Source: Candidatus Bathyarchaeota archaeon (GTDB taxonomy: Archaea > Thermoproteota > Bathyarchaeia > Hecatellales > Hecatellaceae). From it: a stretch of 64,000 bases of DNA. The translations under genes were made by a program, and so were the position numbers. Position 1 is the first letter of the stretch. Every line of letters starts with the position of its first letter. The notes under the pieces were generated by a model. The model did no database searches. It saw only the letters and a list, made by a program, of their open reading frames with translations, and was not told where the DNA came from. The stretch spans positions 64,001-128,000 of the forward strand of contig JBQPWD010000001.1 of the NCBI GenBank assembly GCA_052246995.1, read 5' to 3'. Of the stretch, positions 15,167 through 30,748 are shown one piece after another.

Positions 15167-15221
15167 TCTCTTGAGGCTTCTTTTTCTAAACCTTTTGTCA
15201 GTTAATTAACTAGACGACTGT

Positions 15222-15236
15222 TTTATAAATTTTACT
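15222..15236 (-). promoter_or_regulatory. BRE/TATA promoter of the tRNA-iMet gene
   Basis: Minus strand reads AGTAAAATTTATAAA, about 56 nt upstream of the mature 5' end. Confidence 0.55.
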
Positions 15237-15324
15237 TAGTGAGGTTTTTCAAAACAATTTATTTAAAAGTTATCTAAAATAGGGTTACTGTAAGGGGTAA
15301 GTTCTTAAGTGTAAGCAAGTAATT

Positions 15325-15681
15325 ATGACATCAAAGAAGTGGTTGTTGAAGGACAGAGCTTTCACAGCTGTGGGAGGTTGTTTAGGCATGGAGTATATGT
15401 GGTATGTAATAGGCTTCGCCGGAGCCTGTTTAACAATGTTTGGTTTTGTTCCACAGGTTGTTAGAATGTTTAAGACTAAATCAGTAAACGACGTGAGCTT
15501 TCTAACTTTGCTCCAGATAAGTGTAGGTGCATTACTTTGGATACTTTATGGTTTACATATACGTGATGTTGTCGTCGTAACTGCAAACATAGTTACTTTA
15601 ACTACGTTAATCATGACAATAACCCTTTATTTACGCTATAGAAAACCTTGTAAACATACAAAGAATTTTGAACGGAGTTAA
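15325..15681 (+). CDS. SemiSWEET/PQ-loop transporter
   Basis: FGFVPQV, SVNDVS, LLWILYG, 3 TM segments; true start probably ATG 15388 or 15397. Confidence 0.85.
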   Translation: MTSKKWLLKDRAFTAVGGCLGMEYMWYVIGFAGACLTMFGFVPQVVRMFKTKSVNDVSFLTLLQISVGALLWILYGLHIRDVVVVTANIVTLTTLIMTITLYLRYRKPCKHTKNFERS

Positions 15682-15751
15682 TTTTTTAAGTGAAACTCAA
15701 TTGGGTTGGTGAATAATTGGTGGGAGAATAGCGGAAACACTCTTTATTTTT

Positions 15752-16042
15752 TCAATATCTAATCTCAAAATCTTTAAACTCTCCTTTATACTCCTCCCAT
15801 GAAACTTTGATGTCTTTAACTTTTGCAAGGGGTGGGCCTTTACGGCAAAATTTTATCATTTCTTCAACATCTTCTTTTTCACCCTCAAAAACAGCTTCAA
15901 CCTCTCCGTTAGGTAAATTTCTAACCCAACCTTTAACCCCCCTTTTTAAAGCTTCTTTTTTGGTTTCATGCCGAAAAAATACGCCTTGAACTCTTCCACT
16001 TACAACAACATGAGCTCTAACTTTCAACTTGTTAGCCTCCAA
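15752..16042 (-). CDS. acyP: acylphosphatase
   Basis: [23 protein letters not shown] and GPPLAKV motifs. Confidence 0.95.
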
Positions 16043-16171
16043 ATTTTAGGTTCTCATGTTACTCTAACACATTAACTATCTTCCTTTTTTATTTTTAATT
16101 TTTAGAAGCTAAAAAAATAAATAACAGATGCTTACTATTTTGTAAGCGGATGGTTAAAGGGGGTTGAGTGG

Positions 16172-17185
16172 ATTCCCAGCTATAAGAAGATTAGGGCGGA
16201 TAGAGTTAAAGATTTTCTTGAAAGTTTAACTAACGAGTATAAGGTTTATGTTCCAGTAAATCGAGGAAACATTTACGTATTTGAAGAGTTTTCTAGTGGA
16301 AAAAAATTTGAGATTATATACCCAAAAACCATGGTTTCAGCTAAGAAACTTTTTTTACCTCCAGAAGAAGAAGTTCTAGAGTTTAAAGGGTTAAGAGTTA
16401 AAGAAAAAGTTGTAACCGAGAAAAGAGTTTTGTTTGGGGTTCATTCCTGCGATATCAATGCTTTACATATTCTTAATAAAGCATATAGTTTTAGGTATAA
16501 AGACTCTTATTACCTAGCTAGAAGAAAAAATACTTTAATTATTGGCGTAGAATGTCAACCATCTGAAACATGCTTCTGCAAGTCTATGGATGCATTCACT
16601 GTGAACAAAGGTTACGACTTGTTTTTAAGAAAGTTGAACGAGGAATATTACTGTGTTGATATAGCTTCAAAACTTGGTGAAAAGCTTACAGAATCACCTA
16701 TTTTTGAAGATGTAGATTCAGCATTAGCTAGAGAAGCTAAAAAACGCTTTTTTGAGAAAGTTAAAGAAAAAGTTCCAGTAAAAATTGAGGGTTTACCTGA
16801 AAAAATGGATATATGTTTCGCAGACGAAAAAATATGGAGTGATATTGCAAAAAGATGTCTTGGATGTGGAAATTGCACAATGGTTTGTCCTGTCTGTTGC
16901 TGCTTTAATTTTGTGGATACGGTTGACATTGATTTTAAAACTGGTAAACGTGTTAGGAAATGGGACGCTTGCGTTCTTCCAAACTTTTCAGTTGTTGCAG
17001 GAGGAATCAACTTTAGACCAACAATCCAGCATCGAATAAGAAACTGGTTTTATGACAAGTTTAAAGTATTTGTTGACCAAGTGGGAGTTCCTGGTTGTGT
17101 TGGTTGTGGTAGATGTGTAGCTTATTGTCCGGCAAAAATAGACCTAAGAGAGGAAATTAAAAAAATTTGGGAGAGGTTTCCATGA
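16172..17185 (+). CDS. hydB: group 3b NiFe (sulf)hydrogenase beta subunit (AsrA-like Fe-S protein)
   Basis: GVHSCD, CFC, CLGCGNCTMVCPVC and CVGCGRCVAYCP motifs. The frame is open upstream of the track ATG (16331) and encodes the family N-terminus; probable ATT start at 16172. Confidence 0.88.
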   Translation: MPSYKKIRADRVKDFLESLTNEYKVYVPVNRGNIYVFEEFSSGKKFEIIYPKTMVSAKKLFLPPEEEVLEFKGLRVKEKVVTEKRVLFGVHSCDINALHILNKAYSFRYKDSYYLARRKNTLIIGVECQPSETCFCKSMDAFTVNKGYDLFLRKLNEEYYCVDIASKLGEKLTESPIFEDVDSALAREAKKRFFEKVKEKVPVKIEGLPEKMDICFADEKIWSDIAKRCLGCGNCTMVCPVCCCFNFVDTVDIDFKTGKRVRKWDACVLPNFSVVAGGINFRPTIQHRIRNWFYDKFKVFVDQVGVPGCVGCGRCVAYCPAKIDLREEIKKIWERFP

Positions 17186-18027
17186 ATAAAAATCCATATA
17201 TTCCCAATCCAGCGGTGATAGTGGACGTAGTTGATGAAGCTCCAAGGATTAAAACTTTTACCTTAAAATTTAAAAATAAAAAAGTGCAGGAAAAGTTTAT
17301 TTTTTCCCCTGGGCAGTTTGTTCAGCTTGCTATACCTGGTGTTGGAGAAGCACCAATAAGTTTATCTTCATCTCCAACAGAAAAAGAGCATTTTAAGCTT
17401 TGTGTCAGGGCTGTTGGAAATGTTACAAATGTCTTACATAAGCTGAATGTTGGCGATATTGTATGGATTAGAGGTCCTTATGGTAGAGGCTTTAACATGG
17501 ATGATTTTAGGGGAAAAAATCTTGTATTTGTTGCAGGAGGAATAGGTTTGGCACCTTTAAGGTCAGCTATAAACATGGTTGTAAACCTTAGAGAAAATTA
17601 TGGTGATGTTAAAATTCTTTATGGTGATAGGACACCACAACACCTCCTTTTCGCAAAAGAACGTGAATTGTGGCGTAAAACCTGCGAAGTATGCCTAACA
17701 GTTGACGTTCCAGATGAAAGTTGGAGTGGATGTGTTGGTGTTGTTACAAAACTTTTTGACATTGTAAAAGTAACTCCAAATAATAGTGTTGCTCTAGTTT
17801 GCGGCCCGGTTGTTATGTACAGGTTTGTTGTTAAAAAGCTTCTAGAATTAGGTTTTACTGAAGATTCAATTTATCTCTCACTTGAAAGACGTATGAAGTG
17901 TGGTGTTGGAAATTGCAGGCACTGTATGATTGGCTCAAAGTTTGTTTGTCTTGATGGACCTGTTTTCACGTTTAAAGAGCTTAAAAACATCCCTCTTGAA
18001 GAAGTTCCCGAGGCGAAGCTTCCATGA
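17182..18027 (+). CDS. hydG: group 3b hydrogenase gamma subunit (FAD/NAD-binding)
   Basis: PGQFV, RGPYGRGF, AGGIGLAPLR, CGPVVM, LERRMKCGVGNCRHC; ATG overlaps the hydB stop. Confidence 0.92.
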   Translation: MNKNPYIPNPAVIVDVVDEAPRIKTFTLKFKNKKVQEKFIFSPGQFVQLAIPGVGEAPISLSSSPTEKEHFKLCVRAVGNVTNVLHKLNVGDIVWIRGPYGRGFNMDDFRGKNLVFVAGGIGLAPLRSAINMVVNLRENYGDVKILYGDRTPQHLLFAKERELWRKTCEVCLTVDVPDESWSGCVGVVTKLFDIVKVTPNNSVALVCGPVVMYRFVVKKLLELGFTEDSIYLSLERRMKCGVGNCRHCMIGSKFVCLDGPVFTFKELKNIPLEEVPEAKLP

Positions 18028-18803
18028 GTGGGAAAATTGGCTTTAAAAAAGTTAAACCTGTAGTCGGTATTTTTGACTTAACAGATTGTAATGGTTGTTT
18101 ATGGGCTTTTGCTAATCATCCTGAATCTTTAAGCATACTTAAAATGGTGAAAATTAAAAGTTTTAGGCTTGTATCAGATGGCAAGCTTCGTGGACGTTAC
18201 GATGTTTCTATTGTTGAAGGTTATCCTGGAGACGAAGAGGAAGTTGAGATTCTTAAAAGAATTAGAGAAAGTTCTGACATCCTTATTGCCTTAGGTGCAT
18301 GTGCATGTACTGGAGGTATACAAACCATACGTAACTTTTTAAATCTAGGCGAAGTTAAAAACTACGTTTATCCTGGTAACACCTCTATTAAGCTTGTTGA
18401 AGCAAAACCTGTGGATGCTTATGTTAAGGTAGACTTTTATATTCCAGGTTGTCCTGTAAATGGAGGAGAAGTTGTTGAAGCTTTAAAAGCTCTTATTTTA
18501 GGTAAAACTCCCGAAGTTCCAAACTATGCTGTTTGTGTTGAATGTAAAATGAGAGAAACTGAATGTATGCTTATTAAAGGTTCTCCCTGTCTTGGACCTG
18601 TAACTCGTGGCGGTTGCAACGCACCGTGTCCTGCCGCAGGCTATGTTTGTGATGGTTGTAGAGGACCTTTAAGCGAAGCTAATTTTGCATCTGAAGCTGA
18701 GATTTTAAAGCAAATTGTCAAGGAGAAAGATTTAACCCTTCTTTTTAGGAGATATGCTGGCTTAATGGAAGGTTTTAAAAAAATTGCTGAAGGTGGAATG
18801 TAA
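18024..18803 (+). CDS. hydD: group 3b hydrogenase delta (small) subunit
   Basis: CNGC, GACACTGG, IPGCP, CVEC, CLGPVTRGGCNAPCP and CDGCRG motifs. Confidence 0.92.
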   Translation: MSGKIGFKKVKPVVGIFDLTDCNGCLWAFANHPESLSILKMVKIKSFRLVSDGKLRGRYDVSIVEGYPGDEEEVEILKRIRESSDILIALGACACTGGIQTIRNFLNLGEVKNYVYPGNTSIKLVEAKPVDAYVKVDFYIPGCPVNGGEVVEALKALILGKTPEVPNYAVCVECKMRETECMLIKGSPCLGPVTRGGCNAPCPAAGYVCDGCRGPLSEANFASEAEILKQIVKEKDLTLLFRRYAGLMEGFKKIAEGGM

Positions 18804-18806
18804 AAA

Positions 18807-20078
18807 ATGGGTAAAAGTAAGATAATAGAGTTTGGCTATCTTCCAAGAGTTGAAGGCCACATGTCGTACACTGTTAACTTTAAGACTGGCAACGTTCGTG
18901 TTGAAGTTTTAGAGGGTGTTAGACTTTTTGAGGGGTTTATTAGAGGCAGAAAATTTGATGAAGTAATATACTTTGTCTCCAGAATTTGCGGTATATGCCC
19001 ATCTTCACATAATTTGTGTTCAATTAAGGCTGTTGAAGATGCATTTGAAATTCAACCCTCGGAACAAACTATCAAATTAAGAAAGCTTATGCACTTCGGC
19101 GAAATCATTCAAAGCCACATAGGCCACTTATACTTTTTAGCTTTACCCGACCTTCTTGGTTTTAAAGATGTTTTCCAGCTATTAAAAAAATACTCTGAAG
19201 AGGTTAAAGCAGCTTTAAGGCTTAGAGAGGTAGCAAATAGCTTGGTCGATGTTGTTGGAGGTAGAGCGGTTCATCCTGTAAGCACTACAATAAATGGTTT
19301 TCGTAAGCTTCCATCAGAAACACAGCTTAAAATACTGCTGGGTAAGCTTAAAGAGGTAAGAAGTGATGTTGTTAAAACCGTTGAACTTTTTACAAAACTT
19401 AGTATACCTGACTTTGAGAGAAACACAGAGTATACTGCGCTGAAGAACGAGGTTGAATATGGGTTGTATGATGGTTATATTGTCTCAAGTACTGGTTTAA
19501 AAATTGAACCTAAAAACTATAAAGATACTCTTATGGAGGTTGTAAAGCCATATTCCACAGCAAAATTTAGCTTTAGAAATGGTAAACCATTCTGTGTAGG
19601 TGCTCTTGCAAGATTAAACATAAATAAAGGTCAACTCAATAATGAAGCTAAAAAGGTTGTGGATAATGCTGGAGTAAAGTTTCCAAGCCATAATCCCTAC
19701 CGTTATAACATAGCTCAGGCAGTAGAAGTTGTCCATTGTGTTGAAGAATCCATTAAAATCATCGAAGAACTTTTGAGTGTAGGTTTAAAGGATGAACGAA
19801 CAGATTTTAAGGTTAAAGCTGGAGTTGGTGCAAGTGTTATTGAAGCCCCAAGAGGAATCCTATACCATAGGTATAATATTGATAAAGATGGGTTTGTCAG
19901 GGAGGCAGACATTTTAACCCCAACAGCCCAAAATGTTGCAAACATGGAAGAGGATATAAGGGTAATGCTGCCTACGCTTGTAAACCTTCCAAGGAAGCAG
20001 GCAGTAGCGAGAATAGAATCACTTATAAGAGCGTATGATCCATGTATTTCATGTTCTGTTCATATTTTTGAAGGTTAA
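18807..20078 (+). CDS. hydA: group 3b NiFe hydrogenase large (alpha) subunit
   Basis: RVEGH, L1 motif RICGICPSSH, EAPRG, L2 motif DPCISCSVH. Confidence 0.95.
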   Translation: MGKSKIIEFGYLPRVEGHMSYTVNFKTGNVRVEVLEGVRLFEGFIRGRKFDEVIYFVSRICGICPSSHNLCSIKAVEDAFEIQPSEQTIKLRKLMHFGEIIQSHIGHLYFLALPDLLGFKDVFQLLKKYSEEVKAALRLREVANSLVDVVGGRAVHPVSTTINGFRKLPSETQLKILLGKLKEVRSDVVKTVELFTKLSIPDFERNTEYTALKNEVEYGLYDGYIVSSTGLKIEPKNYKDTLMEVVKPYSTAKFSFRNGKPFCVGALARLNINKGQLNNEAKKVVDNAGVKFPSHNPYRYNIAQAVEVVHCVEESIKIIEELLSVGLKDERTDFKVKAGVGASVIEAPRGILYHRYNIDKDGFVREADILTPTAQNVANMEEDIRVMLPTLVNLPRKQAVARIESLIRAYDPCISCSVHIFEG

Positions 20079-20142
20079 ATAAGTTTTTAAGTAAAAAAGA
20101 TTAACATTTTTAACTTGTTTTTTCTTAATGCCTTGATGAGTA

Positions 20143-20661
20143 TTGTCATTGTTAACACCTATACAGCTTATACTTACATTCTTTTTTGCAGGAATCTCGT
20201 TAAAAATTGCGGATTATCTAGGTGAAAAAGGGTTAAAGTTAAAAGCTTATTCAGCTTCAGTAGTTTCAGCCTTTCTTTTCTGGATGCTTATAAAAAATGA
20301 TCCGCAAAGTTCAACAATAGTTTCTTCGATAATTTTTGGATGCTTATTGTCATTTAAAGTTGATAAGCCAAATCTTTTCTTAGGAGTACTCTTAATTTTT
20401 GCCTTATCTATTTTTTTAGGGTTTTCTACACCTATTTTTTGGCTTTTAGCTATACTTACATCTACAGCTATGCTAGATGAATTTATGCATGAAAAGTTTA
20501 CAGGAAAGGGAATGTTTAGCATATTTTTTAGATTTAGGTTTATTCTTAAAATAGGAGTTCTAACAGCGTTTTTTGCTAGCGTATTATCATTAATTCATTT
20601 AATAGGCTTTTTTCTTTTTGACCTATCCTATGACCTTTTAAGCCTATACCTTAAAGAATAA
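20143..20661 (+). CDS. hypothetical membrane protein
   Basis: 172-aa ORF with 5-6 hydrophobic segments. Confidence 0.65.
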   Translation: MSLLTPIQLILTFFFAGISLKIADYLGEKGLKLKAYSASVVSAFLFWMLIKNDPQSSTIVSSIIFGCLLSFKVDKPNLFLGVLLIFALSIFLGFSTPIFWLLAILTSTAMLDEFMHEKFTGKGMFSIFFRFRFILKIGVLTAFFASVLSLIHLIGFFLFDLSYDLLSLYLKE

Positions 20662-20690
20662 ACAAAAACCAATAATTTTCCTTATTTTTG

Positions 20691-21158
20691 CTACATTCCA
20701 TTAACTTTTACTTTAAATAGTTCATTTTCAGGTTTTGCTAAAACCTTGTAGGCAAGTTTTTCCTCATCTTCGGTTGTTGAGGTTTTAATTGTAAATTCAT
20801 CCATAAACTTTAAAAAGTTTATAGGCCTAATTATCACAGTTGTACGCTTTTCTTCTTCAAGTTTAAATTTGAAATTGATGTTTCGACTTGAATTTCTTAT
20901 CTTCAACCTTTTATTTCCAATTGTACATGAAGTTGAGACTTGAATTCCGTCAAGAATACAGGATATTGGAGTTTTATATGGTAAACTTACACTTACACGA
21001 AGGTTAGGATCACCTTTTCTTTTTCCTAACTCCCTAAGACCAATCAACCCCACCCTTAAACCATACGCAAGAAATGGACCAAAATGGGAGTGAAGCTTTT
21101 TAGCGTCATCTACAAGATTTAACAGCTCCTGGGGAATGCTTTCCATCATCCTCACCAC
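20691..21158 (-). CDS. FmdE-family protein
   Basis: LHSHFGPFLAYGLR and SCILDGIQVSTSCTIGN motifs. Confidence 0.85.
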   Translation of the reverse strand: MVRMMESIPQELLNLVDDAKKLHSHFGPFLAYGLRVGLIGLRELGKRKGDPNLRVSVSLPYKTPISCILDGIQVSTSCTIGNKRLKIRNSSRNINFKFKLEEEKRTTVIIRPINFLKFMDEFTIKTSTTEDEEKLAYKVLAKPENELFKVKVNGM

Positions 21159-21421
21159 TAACTTATGTACACTCTTAAAGTCAGATAGATGGTATATTTA
21201 TTTTATGGAAAAATTCGGTAAGGTTCTGTTGAATCCATGGTATGCTTAATTTTTGATTAATGAAGTATTGCTAGAGGTGGCATTTTCACTCTAACGCGTA
21301 AAGCTTTCTCATAACATTTTTCCCTTCGTAAAGGCTTATATTTTGACGTAATAAATACTGATTGAGGACGAAGTATGGGTAGCAGAATGAAATCTAAAAG
21401 TGGGTATTGGTGAATACGAAT

Positions 21422-21502
21422 ATGAATATGATAACCTTACTCGGATTGCTACTAATAGCCCTAGCAGTTGTAGACTCAATCGCGTATTGGAGGAGTGAGT
21501 GA
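21422..21502 (+). CDS. small single-TM peptide (26 aa), missing from the ORF track
   Basis: MNMITLLGLLLIALAVVDSIAYWRSE*; its TGA overlaps the next ATG (TGATG); alternative in-frame starts at 21407 and 21410. Confidence 0.5.
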   Translation: MNMITLLGLLLIALAVVDSIAYWRSE

Positions 21503-22038
21503 TGAACGAGAAAGAGAGGTTAGAAAGAATTCGTAAAGAAGCGGGGTTGCTTGAGAAAATCTTAAGCTACATTCCTGGGTATCGTGGATACAAGGAAAAG
21601 GAGCTACGTAGGGAGACTGATAGGCTTGTTAGAATGGAAATCGTTAATAGGCTTAGATTCGCTAAGGACAGTGTAAGAAAAAGTCTGACTAACCCGGTTG
21701 TAGCACAGAAAATTTCCAGCGAGGATGTTTGGAGGCTCGATACACTGTTATCTCGTCTAGATAGGATAACACAGCGCATAGATAAGGCTGTTGCTGGATA
21801 TGCAGGAATGTTTGATATCACTAAAGTTAGGGAGGATAAGCTTGATAGGGTTACTCAGCACGACTTAAGCTTACTGGAGAAGGCAGAAGCAATTAAGGCA
21901 AGCATTGAATCCCTAGCTAAAACAGATCCTGGAAAAGAGGAGTGGCGAAGAATAATAGATGTCTTAACATTAAAGACTGAAGAGTTAGAGGTGCTGGTTG
22001 ACAGGAGGGTTGAAATTCTTAGGGGGTTGGTGGATTAG
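21499..22038 (+). CDS. conserved alpha-helical/coiled-coil hypothetical protein (SPFH-associated)
   Basis: IPGYRGYKEKELRRETD and AGYAGMFD motifs; abuts the SPFH gene. Confidence 0.75.
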   Translation: MMNEKERLERIRKEAGLLEKILSYIPGYRGYKEKELRRETDRLVRMEIVNRLRFAKDSVRKSLTNPVVAQKISSEDVWRLDTLLSRLDRITQRIDKAVAGYAGMFDITKVREDKLDRVTQHDLSLLEKAEAIKASIESLAKTDPGKEEWRRIIDVLTLKTEELEVLVDRRVEILRGLVD

Positions 22039-23082
22039 ATGCCTAAGGTTATTGAATGGGTTGGTGCGAGAGAGGGCGACATAGTTTGGAGATATCCGAA
22101 TGAGGAGATCGTCTGGGGGGACAACCTAATAGTTCATGAGTATGAGGCCGCCGTCTTCTTTAGGGATGGTAAAGCATATGATGTCTTCAGAGCTGGAAGA
22201 CATGTACTAACAACAGCAAACCTGCCACTACTTACAAAGGTATTATCGGTAATGGCTGGATTCGATAAGGTTCCATTTAGAGCAACGATAATATTCGTTT
22301 CACTTAAGCAGTTCCAAGGAAGGTTTGGAGCTCAAAGCCAAACGAAGGAGCTTGCCCCAATAAAGTTCTTTGGAAGCTTCTGGTTTAGGGTTGAGGAGAT
22401 AAACCTTTTTGTAAATGAGGTTGTGGGAGGACAAAGTGTCTATACAACTGAGAGGCTACAAGAATTTCTAAGAGGATACCTTAGCGAGAGATTAATCGAC
22501 ACTCTAAGTCAATACTCACTTGTCGAGGTATATGGTAAGCTGGATGAAACCAGCTTCCTAGCTAAGAACGCCCTATACGATGCCTTTAAGAGAATAGGCT
22601 TAGAGCTGATTGATGTAAAGTTTGAAGGGATAGATACAACACCAGAGTGGAGAGATAGAATCTTTTATATAAGAACGGGGGTATTAGCCCCAGAAGTCTT
22701 GAGAATGGAAACTATTCAGAAGTCTGCTGAGAGCCTATCAAAAAGCCCTGGAGCGGCTGTAGGTGCCGGTGTAGCTATAATCCCGCCATTATTCCAGCAG
22801 CCAGCAGCCCAGACTGTTCCAGCTCAACCTATGGTGCTATGTCCAAAGTGTGGTCTCCAGAATCCGCAAACGGCAAAATTCTGTAGCAACTGTGGGACAC
22901 AATTACAAGCAACTGGCATAGCATGTCCGAGGTGTGGAACAACAAATCCAACCGGAGCGAAGTTCTGCATAAATTGTGGTACTCTACTGTCATCTTTAAT
23001 TAAATGTCCAAAGTGTGGAATTGATGTGCAACAAGGGTCAAAATTCTGTCCAAACTGCGGAGAGAAGCTAGTTTCTCAGTAA
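22039..23082 (+). CDS. SPFH/Band-7 protein (YdjI-like) with three C-terminal zinc ribbons
   Basis: IVWRYP, LIVHEYEAAVFFRDG, GRHVLTTANLP; three CPxCG...FCxNCG repeats. Confidence 0.88.
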   Translation: MPKVIEWVGAREGDIVWRYPNEEIVWGDNLIVHEYEAAVFFRDGKAYDVFRAGRHVLTTANLPLLTKVLSVMAGFDKVPFRATIIFVSLKQFQGRFGAQSQTKELAPIKFFGSFWFRVEEINLFVNEVVGGQSVYTTERLQEFLRGYLSERLIDTLSQYSLVEVYGKLDETSFLAKNALYDAFKRIGLELIDVKFEGIDTTPEWRDRIFYIRTGVLAPEVLRMETIQKSAESLSKSPGAAVGAGVAIIPPLFQQPAAQTVPAQPMVLCPKCGLQNPQTAKFCSNCGTQLQATGIACPRCGTTNPTGAKFCINCGTLLSSLIKCPKCGIDVQQGSKFCPNCGEKLVSQ

Positions 23083-23211
23083 AATCCCAATTTTACCTTT
23101 TATTCATTTAAAGATATTTCTCTTCCCCAGAATTTTTATATGGTTAATACATTGTTGCAACAAAAATGAAAAAATTGGTTAGAGTTTTAATAGAGGTCAA
23201 CTAACTATGAT

Positions 23212-23823
23212 TTAAGCCGTTCTCTTAGCTCCACAGTTTGGGCAAGCTGTCTCAGTTTGTGGGAATAACGTTCCACAGTACTTGCATGGAACCATCACTA
23301 CCTCTCGAATTATCTCCTTCTCCTTGACTATGGGTGTAGCCGCTGGCTGAGCGATTTGAATTTCCAGAGTTGGGCTTGTTGCATCCGGTCTGCCCTTAAC
23401 GGCTACAACCCCCTTAATCAACCACGTAACCTTCCTGTCAATTCCCTTATAGGTAGGCTTCATCGTGATTGGAATGTTTATACTGAATGGAAAACTTCCT
23501 GTGAAGCTTTTTGATATATGAGTTTGAGGGCTAATGGGAGGTTTAATGGAATATAGCGTTGCCGTTTCCCAAACCTCTCTTACAACCTCACGCTTTAAAT
23601 GCGAATCATAAAATCTTTTTTGAACCTTCGCTGACTCAATACATTGAAGTTCGCATCTTATCTCATCGGCATCAAACTCATCATTGGAAAACAGGGTTAA
23701 TTCACCCTCAATGTTCTCGCCAAGAAAATATGTATCTTTTTTAAGGTTTAATTTTAAGTTGACTTTTGGCGGTGTGGCTTTTTCGGCTAGCTTTTTTAAA
23801 AAAGACAAGCCATTACCCCTCAT
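23212..23823 (-). CDS. Spo0M/arrestin-N-like beta-sandwich protein with C-terminal zinc ribbon
   Basis: SFLKKL...YFLGENIEGELTL...FPFSINIP...PTY...VTWLIKG pattern, CKYCG...CPNCG; likely start TTG 23808. Confidence 0.7.
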   Translation of the reverse strand: MRGNGLSFLKKLAEKATPPKVNLKLNLKKDTYFLGENIEGELTLFSNDEFDADEIRCELQCIESAKVQKRFYDSHLKREVVREVWETATLYSIKPPISPQTHISKSFTGSFPFSINIPITMKPTYKGIDRKVTWLIKGVVAVKGRPDATSPTLEIQIAQPAATPIVKEKEIIREVVMVPCKYCGTLFPQTETACPNCGAKRTA

Positions 23824-24002
23824 GAGATATTAACGTTATGTCTAGCTATAGATATTAACTCTTCGGGGCTAATAATATATATTATTGTGGAAAAAACATG
23901 ATTGTCTTGAGCATTTTTTGCAAATGAAACACTTAAAAATTCCCTAAACTTTTTGGTTGAAAGCCGCCAACGTTATTTAAATCTATCCTCTAAACTTCAC
24001 AA

Positions 24003-24222
24003 GCATATACCTCCAACACCCTTAGACATGTTTTCCATACACAGTTTGTATGTTCAAAACTTGGAATAGGCTCTAAGCTAAGAATGACTAGGCCCCGCAG
24101 AACAGGAATAATGTTACCTGCTTTAATTTGGAAGCTAGCTTGGTGCTGTTTTAAACTTGGTATGGTGAAGCCTCTAGCTGAAAAACCGAGAATCTTTCAG
24201 CTTTAGTCGTAGGAAGCGTTAA
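24003..24222 (+). mobile_element. degenerate IS200/IS605 (tnpB) 3' remnant, copy 1
   Basis: Decayed AYTSNT and FVCSKLG fragments resembling the TnpB zinc finger, then a GAGAATCTTTCAGCTTTAGTCGTAGGAAGCGTTAA right-end-like motif; homologous to 60280-60454. Confidence 0.6.
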
Positions 24223-25567
24223 AGTATCCTAAACCCCAAAAATTTTTTGGTTGGATTTTTTTGTTCTCTTTAAGAGTAGATGTTTTTTCTTGACCATACC
24301 TTTCATATGGCTTTGTTAGGTGTCTTTGGGATCTTGGAGGAGGAATGTAGAATGTTGGCTTAATGTTTCTTTCAACTTCAACTAAAACCTTTTTTGCCAT
24401 AGGGTTTCTGTAGCCACATTTTTCACATTTAAATCCCTTGTTCAAGCCGAGTGAAGTCATCCTTTTGTTACAGATAGGGCATGGTGGATTTTTCTCCTCA
24501 ACTTTTTTAGCTAAACTCAAAATCTCAATTTTTTCTAGGTTTACTGTTGTAGGTGTGGTTGGTGATGCTTTTCTAAGCCCACCATAAACCCTAACTTTAT
24601 CACCCACAATAAGACTTCTGACAACGTTTCTGAATTTTCCAGTAGGCTCGTAAGCAGCACAGTATATTTCACCTGTTTCATCTTTAAGTTTAAAGATAAC
24701 ATGACCTCCTACAACCGTCAAAGGTTGACTTGAAACATATCCCTCTAAAATAATGGTACTGTAAGGTTTAACTTCACAAATTTTACATACTTTTCTTAGA
24801 TGTGCATCTGTGCCCTGATTTGACCTAAATATGGTCCAACGTTCAACAGGTTCATAAACTTTGATAAGCCTCATAGCATATTTAACAATGCTAGAATTTT
24901 CCCCACGGACACCATATAAAACAGGGTCTCCTCCTCGAGGAGTTATAAGCACCCTTCCTGTTTCATAGTCAATGTTGTTAAACGTTAATGGCTTGGTTAG
25001 TTTATCCATTTCCCAAACAGAGTTTAAATCAATTCTTCTAGGTTTACCTCTATTCTCAATTCTCCTGTAGGTTAAAACTTCATAGGTATGGTCTTCATCA
25101 AGAGTTTCACCAATAGCAGCTAAAGCTCCAACAATACCTTTAACATCATTAAACCAGTAAACTTTACACTTAACACTTCTAGCAACTCTTAAAGCTTCAT
25201 CTATACTAATCATTCTCCATAAAGCTTCGGATGAAAAATTTTTAAGAGTTGTGGGTACTTCTCCCTCTAAAAAAGCAACTCCAGGGTTTGTTTCCTCATC
25301 CCTCTCAAAATTTTTTTCAACAAAATCTATGATAACATCTTCAACATTAGTATAATCATCTTTAGAGTTAATGTTTAACCTTAAGCATGTAGCGCCATTC
25401 CCCCTAGTTTTCCAAGTAATATTAGGGTTTAACCTGATAAGATTAGGAAAATCCAAAAAATCTGTATAACCTTTTTTATGCAAAACCTCAATTAAGCATG
25501 ATGTGATATAGGTTGTACATCCACTTTTAACCGAATCAGTATCATCTAACCCAACGTGAAGCTGCAA
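24203..25567 (-). CDS. tiaS: tRNA(Ile2) 2-agmatinylcytidine synthetase
   Basis: GLDDTDS, RLNPNITWKTRGNGA, FRSNQGTDAH, AAYEPT, zinc ribbon, RHLTKP. Confidence 0.95.
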   Translation of the reverse strand: MQLHVGLDDTDSVKSGCTTYITSCLIEVLHKKGYTDFLDFPNLIRLNPNITWKTRGNGATCLRLNINSKDDYTNVEDVIIDFVEKNFERDEETNPGVAFLEGEVPTTLKNFSSEALWRMISIDEALRVARSVKCKVYWFNDVKGIVGALAAIGETLDEDHTYEVLTYRRIENRGKPRRIDLNSVWEMDKLTKPLTFNNIDYETGRVLITPRGGDPVLYGVRGENSSIVKYAMRLIKVYEPVERWTIFRSNQGTDAHLRKVCKICEVKPYSTIILEGYVSSQPLTVVGGHVIFKLKDETGEIYCAAYEPTGKFRNVVRSLIVGDKVRVYGGLRKASPTTPTTVNLEKIEILSLAKKVEEKNPPCPICNKRMTSLGLNKGFKCEKCGYRNPMAKKVLVEVERNIKPTFYIPPPRSQRHLTKPYERYGQEKTSTLKENKKIQPKNFWGLGYFNASYD

Positions 25568-25579
25568 AGTTAAAGATAC

Positions 25580-25816
25580 CTAGGTTTCTTCAATAACAAT
25601 CATTGTAAGGGTTGAACGTACTTTATCCAGTTTCCTAATATTCCATGTAACACATTCTTTAAGCTTATCCAGCGATTCTGCTTGAACTTTGGCTATAATG
25701 TCATATGTTCCGTAAACAGTGTATGCTTCAATAACATTCTTTATTTTTCTAATCTCTTTAAGAACAACACTCTCCGCTCCAATTTCGGTATTAATTAATA
25801 CATAGGCTATTGGCAT
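25580..25816 (-). CDS. Lrp/AsnC ligand-binding (RAM) domain protein
   Basis: AYVLINTE, VYGTYDIIAKV and VRSTLTMIV motifs. Confidence 0.88.
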   Translation of the reverse strand: MPIAYVLINTEIGAESVVLKEIRKIKNVIEAYTVYGTYDIIAKVQAESLDKLKECVTWNIRKLDKVRSTLTMIVIEET

Positions 25817-26032
25817 TTTTCTCCCCCAAATTTATATTAGTTTTTAAAGATATTAAATCTAACCTAAACTTTAGCGTGTAATGTTAAGGCCTTTATGATA
25901 ATCAGGGAAATTTTTTATTTTGAAGGATTTTAAATTTTTATTTTCGTTGGTATTCTGTATGACCATGATTATGTTTTTTTTTTAAAAAACGGAAAAATCT
26001 TATTTTCACTTTTACACATTTCATTTTTAAGA

Positions 26033-26341
26033 TTAGATGGTCAACTCCATGATTGGAATGTGTTGTTGTGCACCATAAACATCTGTTGTATAAACTTCAT
26101 CTGATGCTGTCTTCTTAATTATAGTTACCTTTATGCCCAAAACGTTGTCAACAAAAAATATTCCTTCAATATTTTCCTCTGGTACGCAGTAGACTTTTGC
26201 AATCTTCTTTTTTGTAAGTATTTTGGAGTTTTTAACAAGCATATACTTATCTTTGTTGTCAAAGAATAGGTCTATGGTAAGCTTAAATGGACTTGCGTTT
26301 TTACTTCTAACAATTTTAACAACATCCTTAAGTTTAACCAT
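26033..26341 (-). CDS. DUF4387-family protein (AtuA partner)
   Basis: VRSKNASPFKLTIDLFF and DVYGAQQH motifs; ATG at 26341. Confidence 0.85.
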   Translation of the reverse strand: MVKLKDVVKIVRSKNASPFKLTIDLFFDNKDKYMLVKNSKILTKKKIAKVYCVPEENIEGIFFVDNVLGIKVTIIKKTASDEVYTTDVYGAQQHIPIMELTI

Positions 26342-26983
26342 AAACCTTTCCCACCATTTTATTTGGAAACTCAACAATTCTAATTTTGAACGGTTCGCAT
26401 GGATTTTCAAGCTTAATTTTATGCCAGACGCTAAAAATGTAAACCGGGCCTACAGGTATATCTGAAGGTGAAAATGGAAACGCCAGATTTCCTGCAGTTG
26501 TTTTTCTGCCTTCAAACCCAAAATGTAGAAGGCTTGACCTTAAAAAGGCACATACAGTACTGGCTAGGCTTTGCTCTTTAGCTACAACATCAATAATTAT
26601 GCATAATTCCTTGCTCTTCAAACTTTTCTTAGGCTCGTTTTCACCCATAACTCCATTCTTAACTTTAAATTTTCCTCGCTAGAAATTTCGTTAACAAGTT
26701 TAAGTACCCTTTCAACATGAACATCTGCTCCAGCACCACCAACAGAGCATATAAAAGGTATTCTTAAGCTTTTTGCTGAGGAAATAATTGGCTTTAAATC
26801 CCTTTTAACATTTGCATCATCAGTATAAGATGTACCTGAACCAAGATAAAATGGTCCGGGGTCTGTTGAGGTTCCCTGTGCAACAATCACATGAGGATTC
26901 CATTTTAAAGCTTGCTTTAAAGATTCTTTTGGAAAACCATAACCAACATGTGTTGTAGCATCATAAATACGGATTTCATCCAA
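26334..26983 (-). pseudogene. AtuA (DUF1446)-family gene with a large internal deletion and frameshift
   Basis: N-terminal part (VGYGFP, GTSTDPGPFYLGSG, GGAG) is joined out of frame to the C-terminal part (NGVMGENEP, LLHFGFEGRKTTAGNLAFPFSPSD); about 220 aa remain versus roughly 450 expected. Confidence 0.8.
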
Positions 26984-27041
26984 AAATAAACCCCCAAAAC
27001 CAGTTTTTATTTTGTATTTTTAATACACTTCTACTTAAAAG

Positions 27042-27560
27042 TTAAACTGGAAAATATTCTTTCTCTAACCTTAAAATATCTTCTACGCTTTTAGCCGTAG
27101 AGTAGTCTTCTAACAATTCCTTGTTTAACGCTAAAAAAACTTCCCCCCACTTGTATATTGATACAACTTCCTCAGCATATTTCTTAAACCCTGAAATGTA
27201 GAGAGCTGCAGCCAAAGCTTCAAGTGAACTTAACTTTCCAACATGACCATAGTTTACCGGGTTTGCTGGAATAAGTAGCGGAAGACGTCGATTTAAACCT
27301 TTAAACCTCCAATGAAAAACCTCTTTAACTTTTTTCCATGAGCAGTCAATAGAAACTACACCAAACCTTGTAACATATTCTCTATCTAATGGTGTTAAAA
27401 CAACATCTACAAACGGATTAAGCAGGATAGCCTTACTAGGTACCTCAACTTTATACTTTATTACCCTAGCTAAACCAAAGTGTTGAAGTTTTCTCGCAGT
27501 ACACTTTTTAGGGTCATCTTGGTTAAGACAGTAAACGTAAAGGTTAGGTTTACTCCTCAT
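27042..27560 (-). CDS. tsr3: 16S rRNA aminocarboxypropyltransferase
   Basis: QDDPKKCTARKL, IDCSW, RRLPLLIPANPVNYG and LSSLEALAAAL motifs. Confidence 0.93.
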   Translation of the reverse strand: MRSKPNLYVYCLNQDDPKKCTARKLQHFGLARVIKYKVEVPSKAILLNPFVDVVLTPLDREYVTRFGVVSIDCSWKKVKEVFHWRFKGLNRRLPLLIPANPVNYGHVGKLSSLEALAAALYISGFKKYAEEVVSIYKWGEVFLALNKELLEDYSTAKSVEDILRLEKEYFPV

Positions 27561-27580
27561 GAAAGAGACAACTATAACTG

Positions 27581-28048
27581 TTAATTTCCCACGGTTGTCA
27601 TCTTACATAGTTTAATCCCGAAGTTTATAGCTTCATTTTTATCAATCCTATTTATGAACAAAAATTTTCCGCCAAAAACTTTATCCGCTGTAACCGAGAC
27701 CTTAACATAACTTTTTAGCTTTTTTAGGTATTCTTCACCTTTTGAAAGTCTTATACAAACTACAAATAGTACAATACTTTTAAGCTTTAAATTTTCCACT
27801 TCTTTTTCAAAAAAGTTTAAGATGCTTTCCATGGGTTTTCCACCGTATATTGGCGAACCTACAACAATCACATCTGCTTTGGTAACATCCTCAGAAGTAA
27901 CGTTTACAACACGTTTAATGCCTAGAATATTAACATTTTTACATGTTTCCATTAATCCTTCGCTAATCCATCTACAAATCTCACCTGTTACACTTTTTTT
28001 CCTCATAGAGTCGTAAACGAAAAGGTAATTCAAGATTGTATTGATCAC
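27581..28048 (-). CDS. flavodoxin-domain protein
   Basis: VYDS...T, DVIVVGSPIYGG, FGGK; likely start TTG 28033. Confidence 0.75.
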   Translation of the reverse strand: MINTILNYLFVYDSMRKKSVTGEICRWISEGLMETCKNVNILGIKRVVNVTSEDVTKADVIVVGSPIYGGKPMESILNFFEKEVENLKLKSIVLFVVCIRLSKGEEYLKKLKSYVKVSVTADKVFGGKFLFINRIDKNEAINFGIKLCKMTTVGN

Positions 28049-28095
28049 CTCAAAAAAGAGAGGTTTACTGGTTAAATTTTAACTTTTAAAAAATT

Positions 28096-28761
28096 TTAAA
28101 TTGTTGATTTAACAGCTTCTTGTTGAACTTCACCATAAAGCATAGTTATAGACCTAGCTACAAAAACTGCAAATAGCGGTGTAGCAAACATTAGAATTAT
28201 CCAGCCGATAAACGGTATACTCCCGATCGCAGAAACAGCAATTCCAATTATAAAAACTACAATCAGCCAAATAAGGTATTTACCCCACCCTATCCTACCT
28301 ATTACTCCTATAATTTCACTAACAGCAAATGCTTTGGAAAAATTGTCCGTTTTAACCATGTGAACGATTCCTATGCTCATAACTATTGAAAAGATAAAAG
28401 CCAATGCTAAGCCAACTAAAAATAAAACACTGCTGAAGATAAAGGAAAGTATAGATTGATAAACTGTAAATACCGTTGGTGTTAATCCCGCCACTACCAT
28501 AATTATTAATGGTATTATCATGTAGACTATACTTACAATTACAATCTTTAAACCGTCAATCCACATTTTTAAAAATCCTTCAAATTTAGGCGGGGTGTTG
28601 CTTGTCGGAGTCTGTCTTATAACGTTACATGCGTAACCTAAAACAACAAAATTTACTACTGGTATAATACTTAAAATTGCGAGAATAATAAGTCTACCAA
28701 CATCCTTACTAAAATCTCTGGTGTAGTTAAAAGCTTCGCTAAAAGTTTCTTCAATCCTCAA
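28096..28761 (-). CDS. DUF4013-family membrane protein
   Basis: IIPVVNFVVLGY, MWIDGLK and AF...EI motifs; 4-5 TM. Confidence 0.85.
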   Translation of the reverse strand: MRIEETFSEAFNYTRDFSKDVGRLIILAILSIIPVVNFVVLGYACNVIRQTPTSNTPPKFEGFLKMWIDGLKIVIVSIVYMIIPLIIMVVAGLTPTVFTVYQSILSFIFSSVLFLVGLALAFIFSIVMSIGIVHMVKTDNFSKAFAVSEIIGVIGRIGWGKYLIWLIVVFIIGIAVSAIGSIPFIGWIILMFATPLFAVFVARSITMLYGEVQQEAVKSTI

Positions 28762-28763
28762 CT

Positions 28764-29513
28764 TTAACTCACCTCAACAGTTTTACCTCTCTTAGCTCTT
28801 CCAGTTCTTCTTGCAGCGATTAATCCGACCTTTTGTCCTGGTGGTGCGTGGCGTGAAACAGTTGAAGGTTTGCCTACATGCCTATGCCTGCCTCCGCCAA
28901 ATGGATGTGAGGCTGCAACCATAGCTACTCCTCTAACTCTTGGCCACTTTCTTCCTCGTGACCTCATAAGGTAATATTTCTCTCCAGCCTTCATGAATGG
29001 TTTATCAGTTCTACCTGAACCTGCAACAACACCTATTGTTGCTAAAGCATTGTTGTTAACTATGGCAGTTTTTCCGGATGTAAGCTTAATAGTAGTTCCG
29101 TAAGGCGTGTGAGCAATTATAATGGCGTAGCTACCTGAGGCTCTAGCAAATTTTCCACCATCCATCGGTAGTTTTTCAACATTACATACAATGGTTCCCT
29201 CGGGTATTTGTGATACTGGTAGAATGTTTCCAACCTCCAAACGGTCACCACCGATATAGATTTCCTGTCCTTCGTACATTCCCTCGCATGCAACATTGTA
29301 AAATACCCTGCCATCCTCACATCTAATCATTGCTAAAGGTGCTCCCCTACCAGGATCGTGAAGAAGTTTTTCAACAAAACCACGGATAGGCTGCTTGGTA
29401 GCTATGCTTAATAAAGCCGGAGGGTATTCTACAGAAGCAACCCTGTAGATGGTGTGAGCTCTAAATGTGAATGTTCCTCTTCCCCTACGTTGAACGAGAA
29501 TTTTTTTACCCAT
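28764..29513 (-). CDS. rpl2: 50S ribosomal protein uL2
   Basis: MGKKILVQRRGRG, HDPGRGAPLA, VRGVAM...HPFGGG, PPGQKVGLIAARRTG. Confidence 0.97.
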   Translation of the reverse strand: MGKKILVQRRGRGTFTFRAHTIYRVASVEYPPALLSIATKQPIRGFVEKLLHDPGRGAPLAMIRCEDGRVFYNVACEGMYEGQEIYIGGDRLEVGNILPVSQIPEGTIVCNVEKLPMDGGKFARASGSYAIIIAHTPYGTTIKLTSGKTAIVNNNALATIGVVAGSGRTDKPFMKAGEKYYLMRSRGRKWPRVRGVAMVAASHPFGGGRHRHVGKPSTVSRHAPPGQKVGLIAARRTGRAKRGKTVEVS

Positions 29514-29662
29514 TTTCTATAACCCAGGATTTCATTAAGGTAGTGTTCAACACCACTATAACCATTACGCGATTTAATAAGAGCAGATTGGGGTATAAAA
29601 GTTTAGCTATCAAATCAGAACATTTATTATCTAAAACTCTAAACAATATTGGTTGAAGTTTT

Positions 29663-30748
29663 ATGAGTAAGGCTACTTTGGAACTTTTAGATGTTAGAGA
29701 GGCACTTAAGAAACTTGCATTAACAAGGCATAAACTGATTGAACCTTTAAAACCTGTCTCCAACCTTCACCAACCAGTTTTCTGGAGTGAAAATGCCGCT
29801 CTTTACGAGTACTCTGCCTACTTAGCCTTATACTCTAGGGAGTTTAAAAAAGCCGGGGAATTCTTTTATAATGCTTACACATGTTACGCTTTGGCCACTC
29901 ATCTTGCTAAAGCAATGTGGAATCCAAAGCTGGCTTGGGATTTTTACCAAAAACTTGCTGAATGCTATAGTTTATATGTTGATGTTTGTAGGAAAATTGG
30001 TCTGCACAACATAGAAAAGGTTTACTTTAGTAGTGAAGGTTTAAAACTTACAGGATACCTTCATATTCCAACAACTGCCAGAAAAAACTATCCTGCTGTT
30101 ATTCTATGTCATGGTGCAGCAGGATGTAAAGATTCGCGTATAATTGAAAGTATTGCAAAGTTCTTAAATGAAAACAATATTGCCGCTTTCCGCATTGACA
30201 TTAGAGGTCACGGAGAAAGCGAAGGTGTTTTTAGCCTTAAAGGTTGGTTGGAAGATATTAACTCGGCTATCCTTTACTTAACCAAAAGAATTGAAATAGA
30301 TCCTGAGAGGATAGGTTTACTTGGTCATAGTCTTGGCGGAAGTTTGGGTCTGGTTAGTGCTGTAAAAAATCAAGCTATAAAGGCTTACGCAGGCTTAGCT
30401 CCAGCATCAAACCTTAAACCCATAATTCCATTTGTAATTGCAAGCTACAAACTAAAGGAATTTAAATTTTCCGATGACATCACACCAGAAAATGTTGAGA
30501 AGTTTGTTGAGGAAAATAATCCTATAAACCTTGTTAATAAACTTCAAAAACCCATCCTACTAACCTACGGAGACAATGACGAATTTCTACATGTTTTAAA
30601 AATCAATGAACTTTTTGAGAAAGCTAATGAACCTAAAGAATTAAAAGTTGTTAAGGATGCAGACCATGTTTTTCTAAACCCCGATAAGATGGAGGAGTGT
30701 TCACGTTTTATAGCTGAATGGTTTAAAAAAACCTTAAGTGTAAATTAG
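29663..30748 (+). CDS. alpha/beta hydrolase with helical N-terminal domain (FrsA/DHPON-hydrolase-like)
   Basis: CHG, GHSLGG nucleophile elbow, YGDNDE, DADH catalytic His. Confidence 0.85.
   Translation: MSKATLELLDVREALKKLALTRHKLIEPLKPVSNLHQPVFWSENAALYEYSAYLALYSREFKKAGEFFYNAYTCYALATHLAKAMWNPKLAWDFYQKLAECYSLYVDVCRKIGLHNIEKVYFSSEGLKLTGYLHIPTTARKNYPAVILCHGAAGCKDSRIIESIAKFLNENNIAAFRIDIRGHGESEGVFSLKGWLEDINSAILYLTKRIEIDPERIGLLGHSLGGSLGLVSAVKNQAIKAYAGLAPASNLKPIIPFVIASYKLKEFKFSDDITPENVEKFVEENNPINLVNKLQKPILLTYGDNDEFLHVLKINELFEKANEPKELKVVKDADHVFLNPDKMEECSRFIAEWFKKTLSVN

Follow-up and report, generated by a model that had tools for sequence, protein, structure and literature searches.

The 64,000-nucleotide stretch of DNA analysed here (the window; contig JBQPWD010000001.1 of a hot-spring Candidatus Bathyarchaeota archaeon whose genome assembly comprises 1.53 Mb on 17 contigs) contains a module of four small genes encoding a cytosolic SPFH protein (S), a helical protein (H), a one-helix membrane peptide (T31) and an arrestin-like protein (A). 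These labels denote genes and products alike, T being the longer counterpart of T31 in other genomes, and all coordinates are positions in the window. The window's module is a small acquired islet that probably runs in reduced form. We are highly confident of its anatomy, of the islet and of the conserved H-S core, and hold with somewhat more belief than doubt that this copy is a reduced, horizontally acquired sub-membrane SPFH scaffold module resembling SamGHI of Bacillus subtilis and equipped with a new partner family, its mechanism being an inferred one. Interest lies in the general H-S system, of which the window has a transferred copy in reduced form.

The module is compact. T31 (21407..21502, forward strand) has 31 codons, encodes one transmembrane (TM) helix and has three candidate starts (TTG 21407, ATG 21422 and ATG 21428); its stop codon, TGA 21500-21502, shares one base with the start codon ATG 21502-21504 of H (21502..22038, forward strand; 178 residues, a predicted helical bundle), which is followed with a gap of 0 nt by S (22039..23082, forward strand; 347 residues, of the Band_7_1 or YdjI/SamI type). 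A (23212..23808, reverse strand; 198 residues) is convergent to these three. The arrangement agrees with that of a first-pass annotation made by a model from the letters of the window and a list of their open reading frames (ORFs), in which three coupled forward genes face a convergent one. The ORFs lie where that annotation had placed them, and two of its starts have been moved: relatives and database gene calls put the start of H at ATG 21502, the alternative being GTG 21499 (179 residues), and that of A at TTG 23808, which an alignment with 35 relatives places at residue 6 of a longer ATG-started ORF (203 residues) reaching 23823. All four reading frames are kept in other genomes, so these ORFs are not due to chance. 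As also claimed at first pass, two of the four products carry zinc ribbons, three in S and in A one weak profile match together with a CxxC...CxxC pattern, and the GC content is raised, to 0.40-0.45 over the module compared with 0.29-0.37 in its flanks.

H and S form the invariant core of a wider system, since their linkage is kept both in archaeal loci and in distant metagenome loci, and the membrane partner and zinc-ribbon accessories vary by lineage. Among 80 archaeal genome loci with relatives of H (L010-L089), S follows H in 76, the misses being two contig ends and two runs of N at the place of S. Among 80 metagenome loci with distant relatives of H (29-40% identity to the query), 70 have a gene for a Band_7_1-type SPFH protein after H; seven of the ten misses lie on contigs that end at most 160 nt from H, and the other three on contigs that end after an intervening gene for a zinc-ribbon (ZnR)-Toastrack protein. 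The H family itself is large, with 1,010 cluster representatives (clusters at 50% identity, E<=0.001, exhaustive search), and its named carriers include Bathyarchaeia, Nezhaarchaeota, Nitrososphaerota, Pyrobaculum, Zestosphaera, Thermofilum and Thermoplasmata. In a protein atlas, all 30 matches of H fall in clusters without a Pfam family, under the labels Bathyarchaeota, Methanobacteriota and Chloroflexota.

The accessories differ between the archaeal and the metagenome loci. In the genome loci, the operon of Bathyarchaeia is joined by two uncharacterised accessories: a zinc-ribbon protein of about 250 residues (Z250) is encoded upstream of T in 31 of 80, and its paralogue of about 410 residues (Z410) between H and S in 19 of 80; the ribbon is N-terminal in Z250 (L007 4814-5566) and internal, near residue 140, in Z410 (L016 8534-9778), and the C-terminal domain common to both ends in a PxWF..Y...DG.tG motif. 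PepSY/YpeB models match 3 of 25 Z250 members (best E 0.01), recalling B. subtilis YdjG/SamG; these weak matches do not establish Z250 as a SamG homologue, an identification kept as a lead. Z410 has no similarity to ZnR-Toastrack proteins, so its equation with them was rejected; it looks like a Z250 paralogue. A model of the Z250 C-terminal domain gave no match in the window's genome at E<=10. In the metagenome loci, the accessories are homologues of the ZnR-Toastrack protein (DUF4097, 1.5e-10) in 16 of 80, a 172-residue zinc-ribbon protein in 15 of 80, response-regulator receivers in 9 of 80 and TM-plus-zinc-ribbon proteins in 5 of 80. The ZnR-Toastrack gene lies between H and S in the exemplar L127 (5538-6701), with homologues in L109, L113, L124, L126, L128, L129, L131, L140, L142, L143, L147, L157, L160, L162 and L174, and its presence links the H-S pair to a domain of the PSP/Lia envelope-stress response. 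The 172-residue protein has no Pfam family and is encoded upstream of H where a position is given.

The PspA-SamGHI module, formerly pspA-ydjGHI, has SamI (YdjI) as its SPFH component. S matches PF13421 (Band_7_1) with its best stretch over residues 16-203 (22084..22647; E 4.8e-27, 95.4 bits, cut-off 24), and the same family matches the B. subtilis control genome, in which YdjI/SamI is its known member. The SPFH domain is followed by a Gly/Ala/Pro-rich low-complexity linker (22744..22827, about residues 236-263), conserved in 32 sequences to the point that G238, G242 and G244 never vary and P249 hardly does, and by three tandem CPxCG...FCxNCG zinc ribbons (22840..23070; about residues 268-289, 293-315 and 320-344), each of the Pfam families DZR, Zn_Ribbon_1 and Zn_ribbon_3 matching three stretches. 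A 15-nt word coding for CPKCG is repeated in the gene at 22839, 22923, 23004 and 23046. No TM segment was found in S by a hydropathy test, the highest 19-residue Kyte-Doolittle mean being 1.31 against a threshold of 1.6. The first-pass description of S as a TM-less YdjI-type SPFH protein with zinc ribbons therefore holds.

S and SamI thus have in common PF13421, the succession of SPFH domain, low-complexity linker and C-terminal zinc ribbon, and the lack of a TM anchor; the same layout of a cytosolic SPFH domain, low-complexity region and C-terminal zinc finger is given for SamI in the portions of the SamGHI study drawn on here (PMC13713150). Both modules also encode their SPFH protein together with small membrane proteins and zinc-ribbon proteins. 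The two also differ. S has three ribbons and SamI one; the window's genome has no PspA above cut-off and H is unrelated to PspA; neither a SamG-like protein (zinc ribbon, YpeB-like domain and TM segment) nor a TPM-domain SamH was seen by family scans in the window's module, where the membrane partner belongs instead to a four-TM protein without a Pfam family; an arrestin-like gene is attached; and the host is an archaeon.

The module occupies an islet (21145..24226) of 3,082 bp without a counterpart in the same-genus genome G001. When window positions 15000-30000 were compared by blastn with the G001 locus L091, 15745-21144 aligned at 84.6% and 24227-25867 at 86.4%, and the alignment ends adjoin in G001 (positions 8385/8326), leaving about 58 bp there, between the FmdE-like gene and TiaS, compared with 3,082 bp in the window; since G001 joins both flanks directly, 21145-24226 represents an insert. 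None of 13 genomes of the same family yielded H, whereas the class at large has it in 135 of the 301 genomes sampled. The GC content at third codon positions (GC3) is 0.417 in H, 0.385 in S and 0.397 in A, compared with 0.279 +/- 0.048 for the genome (95th percentile 0.381; 877 long ORFs), which places the module genes in the top ~5%, and the GC content of the islet (0.404, compared with 0.365 for the genome) ranks among the highest 3.75% of 2,962 equally long segments. The first-pass annotation had claimed horizontal acquisition and proposed a scan of GC and codon usage; the direct junction in G001, the failure to find H in 13 same-family genomes and the GC3 values of H, S and A, all above the genome's 95th percentile, speak in its favour.

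Sequence identities diverge in the same region. TiaS, the gene to the right of the module (24203-25567, reverse strand; NCBIfam TiaS 3.9e-135), is 83% identical to that of G001 and 51-52% to those of the genomes G030, G177 and G040, whereas S is 85% identical to that of G030 and 80-85% across the same three genomes; in G001 and G002, S was not found, save for a match confined to the zinc ribbon (E 9.8e-4) in G002. Horizontal gain is the simplest reading of these comparisons: loss in G001 is compatible with synteny alone and leaves the composition unexplained, which makes gain the simpler of the two. G030, the nearest sampled copy, is not a recent donor, because synonymous divergence (dS) from it exceeds 1.

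Neither an integrase, nor a tRNA, nor convincing direct or inverted repeats were found at the two islet junctions. The left non-coding arm (21145..21406, forward strand), upstream of the operon, has A/T-rich TATA-like stretches recognized by eye only. The right non-coding arm (23824..24226) comprises the upstream region of A and a degenerate junction copy: 23937-23959 is 78% identical to the 23-nt junction sequence 24231-24253, which overlaps the 3' end of TiaS, and the 12-nt core TTTTTGGTTGAA at 23950-23961 recurs without mismatch at the G001 junction. The repeat at 23937-23959 may be an insertion footprint. In G001, a second copy of the TiaS N-terminus (G001:C19:11841-11993, in L091; 51 codons, 88% identical to the window's TiaS) sits about 1 kb upstream of the full TiaS gene. 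One DNA contig of X6, a metagenome run of another study that contains a related strain, skips 2,233 nt, from 21185 to 23419; at depth 5.4 and side 39, it is too weak for a module-less variant to be called and possibly stems from another organism.

H is matched by a single library model, NCBIfam NF047596 (LIMLP_15305_fam; E 6.2e-16, residues 6-173 of 179), a family named for a Leptospira hypothetical protein and without described function. The score of 58.8 bits lies below the curated equivalog cut-off of 210, which makes H a distant relative of that family and not a member. An AlphaFold2 (AF2) model computed from 82 sequences (predicted local distance difference test (pLDDT) 87.6, predicted template modelling score (pTM) 0.80) consists of a helix at the N-terminus, a conserved loop and four helices of about 30 residues packed in a compact bundle, the main helices spanning residues 4-24, 33-63, 74-95, 112-140 and 147-178 and two short ones residues 66-71 and 100-104. 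The conserved N-terminal motif, PGYRGYKEKELRRE, lies in that loop and is less confidently modelled, and P26, R38, R45, D122 and R170 are invariant in the 82 sequences. One cluster representative of 329 residues, P0180, carries the H domain at residues 6-160, so that H may also occur in fused form.

Among Bathyarchaeia and further Thermoproteota, the gene before H is T, which occurs in 77 of the 80 genome loci, is at least 100 residues long in 73, and mostly overlaps H by 4 nt of stop and start codon; its exemplar, from L011, has 115 residues, four hydrophobic segments and no Pfam family. Measured against this layout of about 115 residues, four TM helices and a stop overlapping H, the window offers 31 codons and a single hydrophobic segment by the Kyte-Doolittle scale, with the overlap retained. 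Over its last 24 residues, T31 shares 42-62% identity with the C-terminal helix of nine relatives' T proteins; with a tenth (L052), identity is 36% over 28 residues. No trace of the first three TM helices was found upstream of T31 in any frame by tblastn and three-frame translation, and a search of the whole genome found T31 (E 1.2e-5) and nothing else resembling T. As judged from these alignments, T31 is a truncated remnant of the four-TM protein T of about 115 residues, of which it keeps the last TM helix only. The alignment with that helix rules out a micropeptide family of its own and overturns the first-pass view of a micropeptide serving as dedicated anchor. The four listed differences in T31 between the window and the related strain of run X6 (a partial table) are all at third positions and synonymous, and the remnant may still be translated. 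Another low-depth X6 contig, possibly from another organism, has an additional G immediately ahead of T31's TTG. A contig from one RNA-seq library of another study spans 21393-22225 and bridges T31, H and S, and others cover parts of S and A; stretches 21173-21392 and 23751-24607 are without cover.

The fold of A is predicted with confidence. Pfam Arrestin_N matches it above its cut-off (E 2.2e-8, 34.7 bits, cut-off 24.9), and the AF2 model (pLDDT 88.6) shows a single arrestin-N-like beta-sandwich lobe (residues ~15-153; 23350-23766, reverse strand), a disordered linker and a C-terminal zinc ribbon (23215-23295, reverse strand). Foldseek places the model with the N-lobe of ARRDC3 (E 1.1e-9, probability 1.00, target-normalised TM-score 0.72-0.74), followed by Spo0M (5cl2, E 3.7e-8), the TXNIP N-domain and Vps26, consistent with the arrestin/Spo0M-like fold proposed at first pass. 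Arrestin_C matches weakly (E 0.015), over the residues already covered by Arrestin_N. No match to the Spo0M family PF07070 was found at E<=0.1, and A is for this reason not a Spo0M-family member, although some JGI records name its relatives 'spo0M'. By its predicted structure, A is a one-lobed member of the arrestin clan: it shares with ARRDC3, TXNIP, Spo0M and Vps26 an Arrestin_N match above cut-off and a superposable model, whereas arrestins, Vps26 and Spo0M have two lobes and A has one lobe and a C-terminal zinc ribbon. Arrestin-clan proteins are already known from archaea, as stated in the part of PMC2515105 drawn on here.

In B. subtilis, SamI is brought to the membrane by SamG, an integral protein with a cytoplasmic zinc finger, together with SamH, and is required for the formation of membrane foci by PspA, according to the same portions of the SamGHI study (PMC13713150). 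The gene identities and families, gene order, islet boundaries and predicted folds described above are what the window and its relatives supply; the binding steps, the membrane association and the physiological role that follow are modelled on SamGHI and on gene context, and are inferred throughout. S would oligomerise into a scaffold on the inner face of the membrane, anchored by a small integral membrane partner that would be T elsewhere and here at most the one-helix T31. That T overlaps H and H abuts S suggests coupled translation and a fixed stoichiometry; H would be a stoichiometric partner positioned by S, binding probably through its conserved N-terminal motif, and would stand in the place that PspA holds in Firmicutes without kinship to PspA. 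Docking would be the task of the zinc ribbons in S, A, Z250 and the accessories of bacteria; through them, accessory proteins (A here, Z250 or ZnR-Toastrack proteins elsewhere) would dock on the scaffold or regulate it, and A would act through its arrestin-like lobe as an adaptor to a membrane protein or a lipid surface. In the window's copy, one helix may suffice, or S may reach the membrane in another way, or the module may work less well. This scaffold-anchor-adaptor mechanism, built by analogy, is offered tentatively, with a little more doubt than belief; the explanation as a whole, islet and reduction included, we consider somewhat better than an even call. A complex prediction for S and H from their own alignments (score 0.06, mark 0.32) speaks neither for nor against it.

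Several results weigh against this explanation. No second or full-length T was found by a T search of the window's genome, and the proposed anchoring step may for that reason be inoperative in this copy. In the closest relative, G030, T is likewise short (54 residues, two helices), and it was not detected in L055, L064 and L079; since it is short or missing in several relatives, T may be dispensable, other members of the genus of G030 having a full T and one of them no detectable T. Neither T nor A was found by their own hidden Markov models in the 80 distant metagenome loci (0 of 80 each), only the H-S pair being general. The adjacency of A is largely one evolutionary event: full-length A occurs in 30 of the 301 class genomes and within 1.3 kb of H in only 10, the remainder lying 19-112 kb from H (3), on other contigs (13) or in genomes without an H match (4). 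No functional account of the H family was found, a literature search on LIMLP_15305 yielding only a listing beside a small RNA, and the VIA wide search with the H model returned only generic helical bundles (best Z 12.2, within the tool's noise range for helical proteins), such as NLR coiled-coil domains, IncA, THATCH and talin rods, from which no function is drawn. The RNA evidence, finally, consists of assembled contigs from a library possibly holding DNA, showing neither ends nor strand, so that support for expression is weak.

The place of A in the module is the point at which another explanation survives best. A might be a chance neighbour of the operon in one lineage, acting on other targets, which we regard as possible but unlikely. 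In 20 of the 30 genomes with full-length A, it stands apart from H or without any H, and unlinked copies lie beside genes for a glycosyltransferase, a ParA-like ATPase, a GNAT protein and an HtrA-like protease. Where A is linked, in 18 of the 80 genome loci within the fetched flank, it is convergent downstream in 11, divergent upstream in 6 and co-directional in 1, and a quick maximum-likelihood tree of H gathers 18 of the 19 A-linked sequences, including that of the window, into one group of 20 rows (SH-aLRT 80) labelled Bathyarchaeota, Nitrososphaerota and Nezhaarchaeota, with one Nitrososphaeria and one Nezhaarchaeota record as the window's nearest rows. The A-linked operon is thus, by this tree, mostly one lineage; its spread over several phylum labels fits repeated transfer. 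Within that clade, the adjacency survives all three arrangements, and none of the 80 loci combines A with an upstream Z250, as would be expected of alternatives. A recurs in two further contexts: in G138, a divergent A lies 85 bp by ORF boundaries from a distant H-S pair (H 31% identical), and in all six genomes examined of genus g61, a homologue lies at most 2.3 kb from a different, TM-anchored canonical Band_7 gene (PF01145, 3.3e-18; L094 3915-5551, L099 3171-4805, L100-L103), directly adjacent in two. The six genomes are close kin and count as one event. In one of them, G198 (L101), the Band_7 gene is split into four overlapping pieces. The contexts in G138 and g61 speak for a real link of A with SPFH genes. 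The first-pass proposal of an association between A and the SPFH pair in other genomes stands to the extent that the two do co-occur elsewhere, contrary to the condition named there for its refutation, and fails to the extent that they do so mostly in one clade and that A lies beside H in only 10 of 30 cases.

It is less likely still that H and S are chiefly a signalling device, passing on a signal from the membrane or envelope to a varying set of output or input proteins. The accessories of the distant loci, with their receivers, ZnR-Toastrack proteins, 172-residue ribbon proteins and TM-anchored ribbons, would suit such a role, and SamGHI influences differentiation programmes in B. subtilis (PMC13713150, in the portions cited above). 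However, scans of the window's module revealed neither a kinase nor a DNA-binding domain nor a nucleotide-second-messenger enzyme, and the archaeal loci lack these signalling partners.

A scaffold module that has lost its anchor could also be a decaying leftover of transfer, non-functional in this genome, a reading that we consider improbable. It would account for the reduction of T to 31 codons with the rest untraceable and no second copy, for the erosion of T in G030 and for the failure to find the module in any of the 13 same-family genomes searched, which makes it dispensable for the lineage. On the other hand, H, S and A are each complete and unbroken, aligning with their relatives over the whole length; the RNA-library contigs cover them; and the listed differences of T31 from the X6 strain are synonymous. 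The ratios of nonsynonymous to synonymous divergence (dN/dS) from G030, 0.15 for H and 0.064 for S, indicate from the sequences that both are under purifying selection over that divergence, a span taken as a whole and including the branch after transfer.

More improbable again is the proposal that H is a remodeller of the PspA/ESCRT-III type and the module an equivalent of PspA-YdjGHI, with the micropeptide as its dedicated anchor. What recommends it is context: the Band_7_1-ZnR protein of B. subtilis works with PspA, as set out in the passages drawn on from PMC13713150 and PMC11237479; Toastrack, present in 16 of 80 distant H-S loci, is a known partner domain of the phage-shock-protein (PSP) network; and PspA was found in just 2 of 201 genomes of the phylum, so that its role is left open. 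In the window's genome, the best PspA (PF04012) hit, on another contig, reaches 15.9 bits against a cut-off of 33.9, and the Snf7 genes also lie on another contig. H itself gave no Pfam PspA_IM30 or Snf7 match at E<=0.1, and hhalign of the 82-sequence H profile with four PspA sequences of the same phylum returned a probability of 0.7% (E 0.076, 36 columns); kinship of H with PspA was rejected on these two results. The modelled compact bundle of ~30-residue helices has no long hairpin, and no ESCRT-III fold is among the matches listed for H by Foldseek or VIA wide (top 50). The Foldseek comparison suggested at first pass found nothing in the PDB at E<=0.001, the best TM-score being 0.52 with the soluble domain of IncA, and PDB sequence searches with the H and Z250 profiles returned only designed coiled coils and zinc-ribbon proteins. 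The micropeptide, for its part, is a truncated four-TM protein. The PspA-analogous helical partner of the first-pass annotation, its model a generic bundle, consequently survives only as an analogy of gene context.

That the islet is anti-virus defence cargo, as its small size, acquisition and patchy distribution might suggest, is highly improbable, since PADLOC models gave no match to H, S, A or T at E<=0.01, family scans revealed no nuclease, ATPase or toxin-like domain, and the islet is not bounded by an integrase or repeats.

To the left of the islet lies an FmdE-like gene (20691-21158, reverse strand; Pfam FmdE 3e-19), and further left, at 16331-20078, four co-directional genes whose translations, taken alone, resemble a sulfhydrogenase-like [NiFe] hydrogenase with Fe-S and FAD/NAD-binding subunits. 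To the right, the first-pass annotation had placed a tnpB remnant, where the gene proves to be TiaS. The TnpB models PF07282 and NF040570, run over the whole genome at E<=10, gave no match in 23824-24202, the nearest PF07282 match (E 0.235) falling inside the zinc ribbon of TiaS itself; the two short ORFs there have no relevant Pfam match, and the DNA of this stretch is single-copy in the genome. TnpB models, ORF content and unique DNA together rule the remnant out. The only TnpB-like sequence in the genome is a C-terminal fragment far from the window, at the start of contig 8 (G000:C8:14-265; PF07282 2.9e-16; NF040570 1.4e-16, model positions 301-387). An Rfam scan of 20500-25000 returned one snoRNA match at chance level, within TiaS.

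Part of this picture is already known, namely the Band_7_1 SPFH family, of which S is an ordinary member, and the principle of a cytosolic SPFH scaffold recruited to the membrane, established for SamGHI. Related arrangements have been described as well. The methanogen 'Meth_adaptin' ESCRT loci likewise combine archaeal SPFH proteins and zinc ribbons in a conserved membrane-remodelling context, and Makarova et al. 2024 link their SPFH-coiled-coil-zinc-ribbon proteins to YdjI; in the sections of that paper used here (PMC10936438), the loci centre on Vps4/ESCRT and adaptin-appendage proteins, none of which is encoded at the window's module. PspA-free Toastrack contexts, proposed as PSP analogues by Ravi et al. 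2024, resemble the 16 of 80 distant H-S loci with a ZnR-Toastrack homologue, whereas the window's copy has no Toastrack gene, and neither the H family nor its operon is mentioned in the passages of PMC11237479 covered here. A literature search for the H family or the operon found no description in the sources it reached; the supplementary neighbourhood tables of PMC11237479 and of the preprint by Popp et al. may hold such context. The elements not found in print are thus the H family, the near-obligate association of its members with Band_7_1-ZnR proteins, the partner with four TM helices and the arrestin-like accessory gene.

SPFH proteins are universal and their mechanical role is poorly understood. 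To our knowledge, B. subtilis SamI is the one Band_7_1 member that has been studied, and it works with PspA. The association of Band_7_1 SPFH proteins with a different helical protein, itself a family covered by no Pfam model, over about 1,000 clusters, in lineages with few PspA genes, points to a second, independent set of partners, and an arrestin-fold protein is linked to SPFH genes in three archaeal gene contexts. It is conceivable, though we would sooner doubt it, that archaea and bacteria widely share a sub-membrane system independent of PspA and centred on H and its Band_7_1-zinc-ribbon protein, with H as a new effector positioned by the SPFH protein and with interchangeable zinc-ribbon adaptors (A, the YpeB-like Z250, ZnR-Toastrack and ZnR-TM proteins) plugging in through their ribbons. 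If this were so, A would be a prokaryotic arrestin-fold protein serving a membrane-microdomain scaffold.

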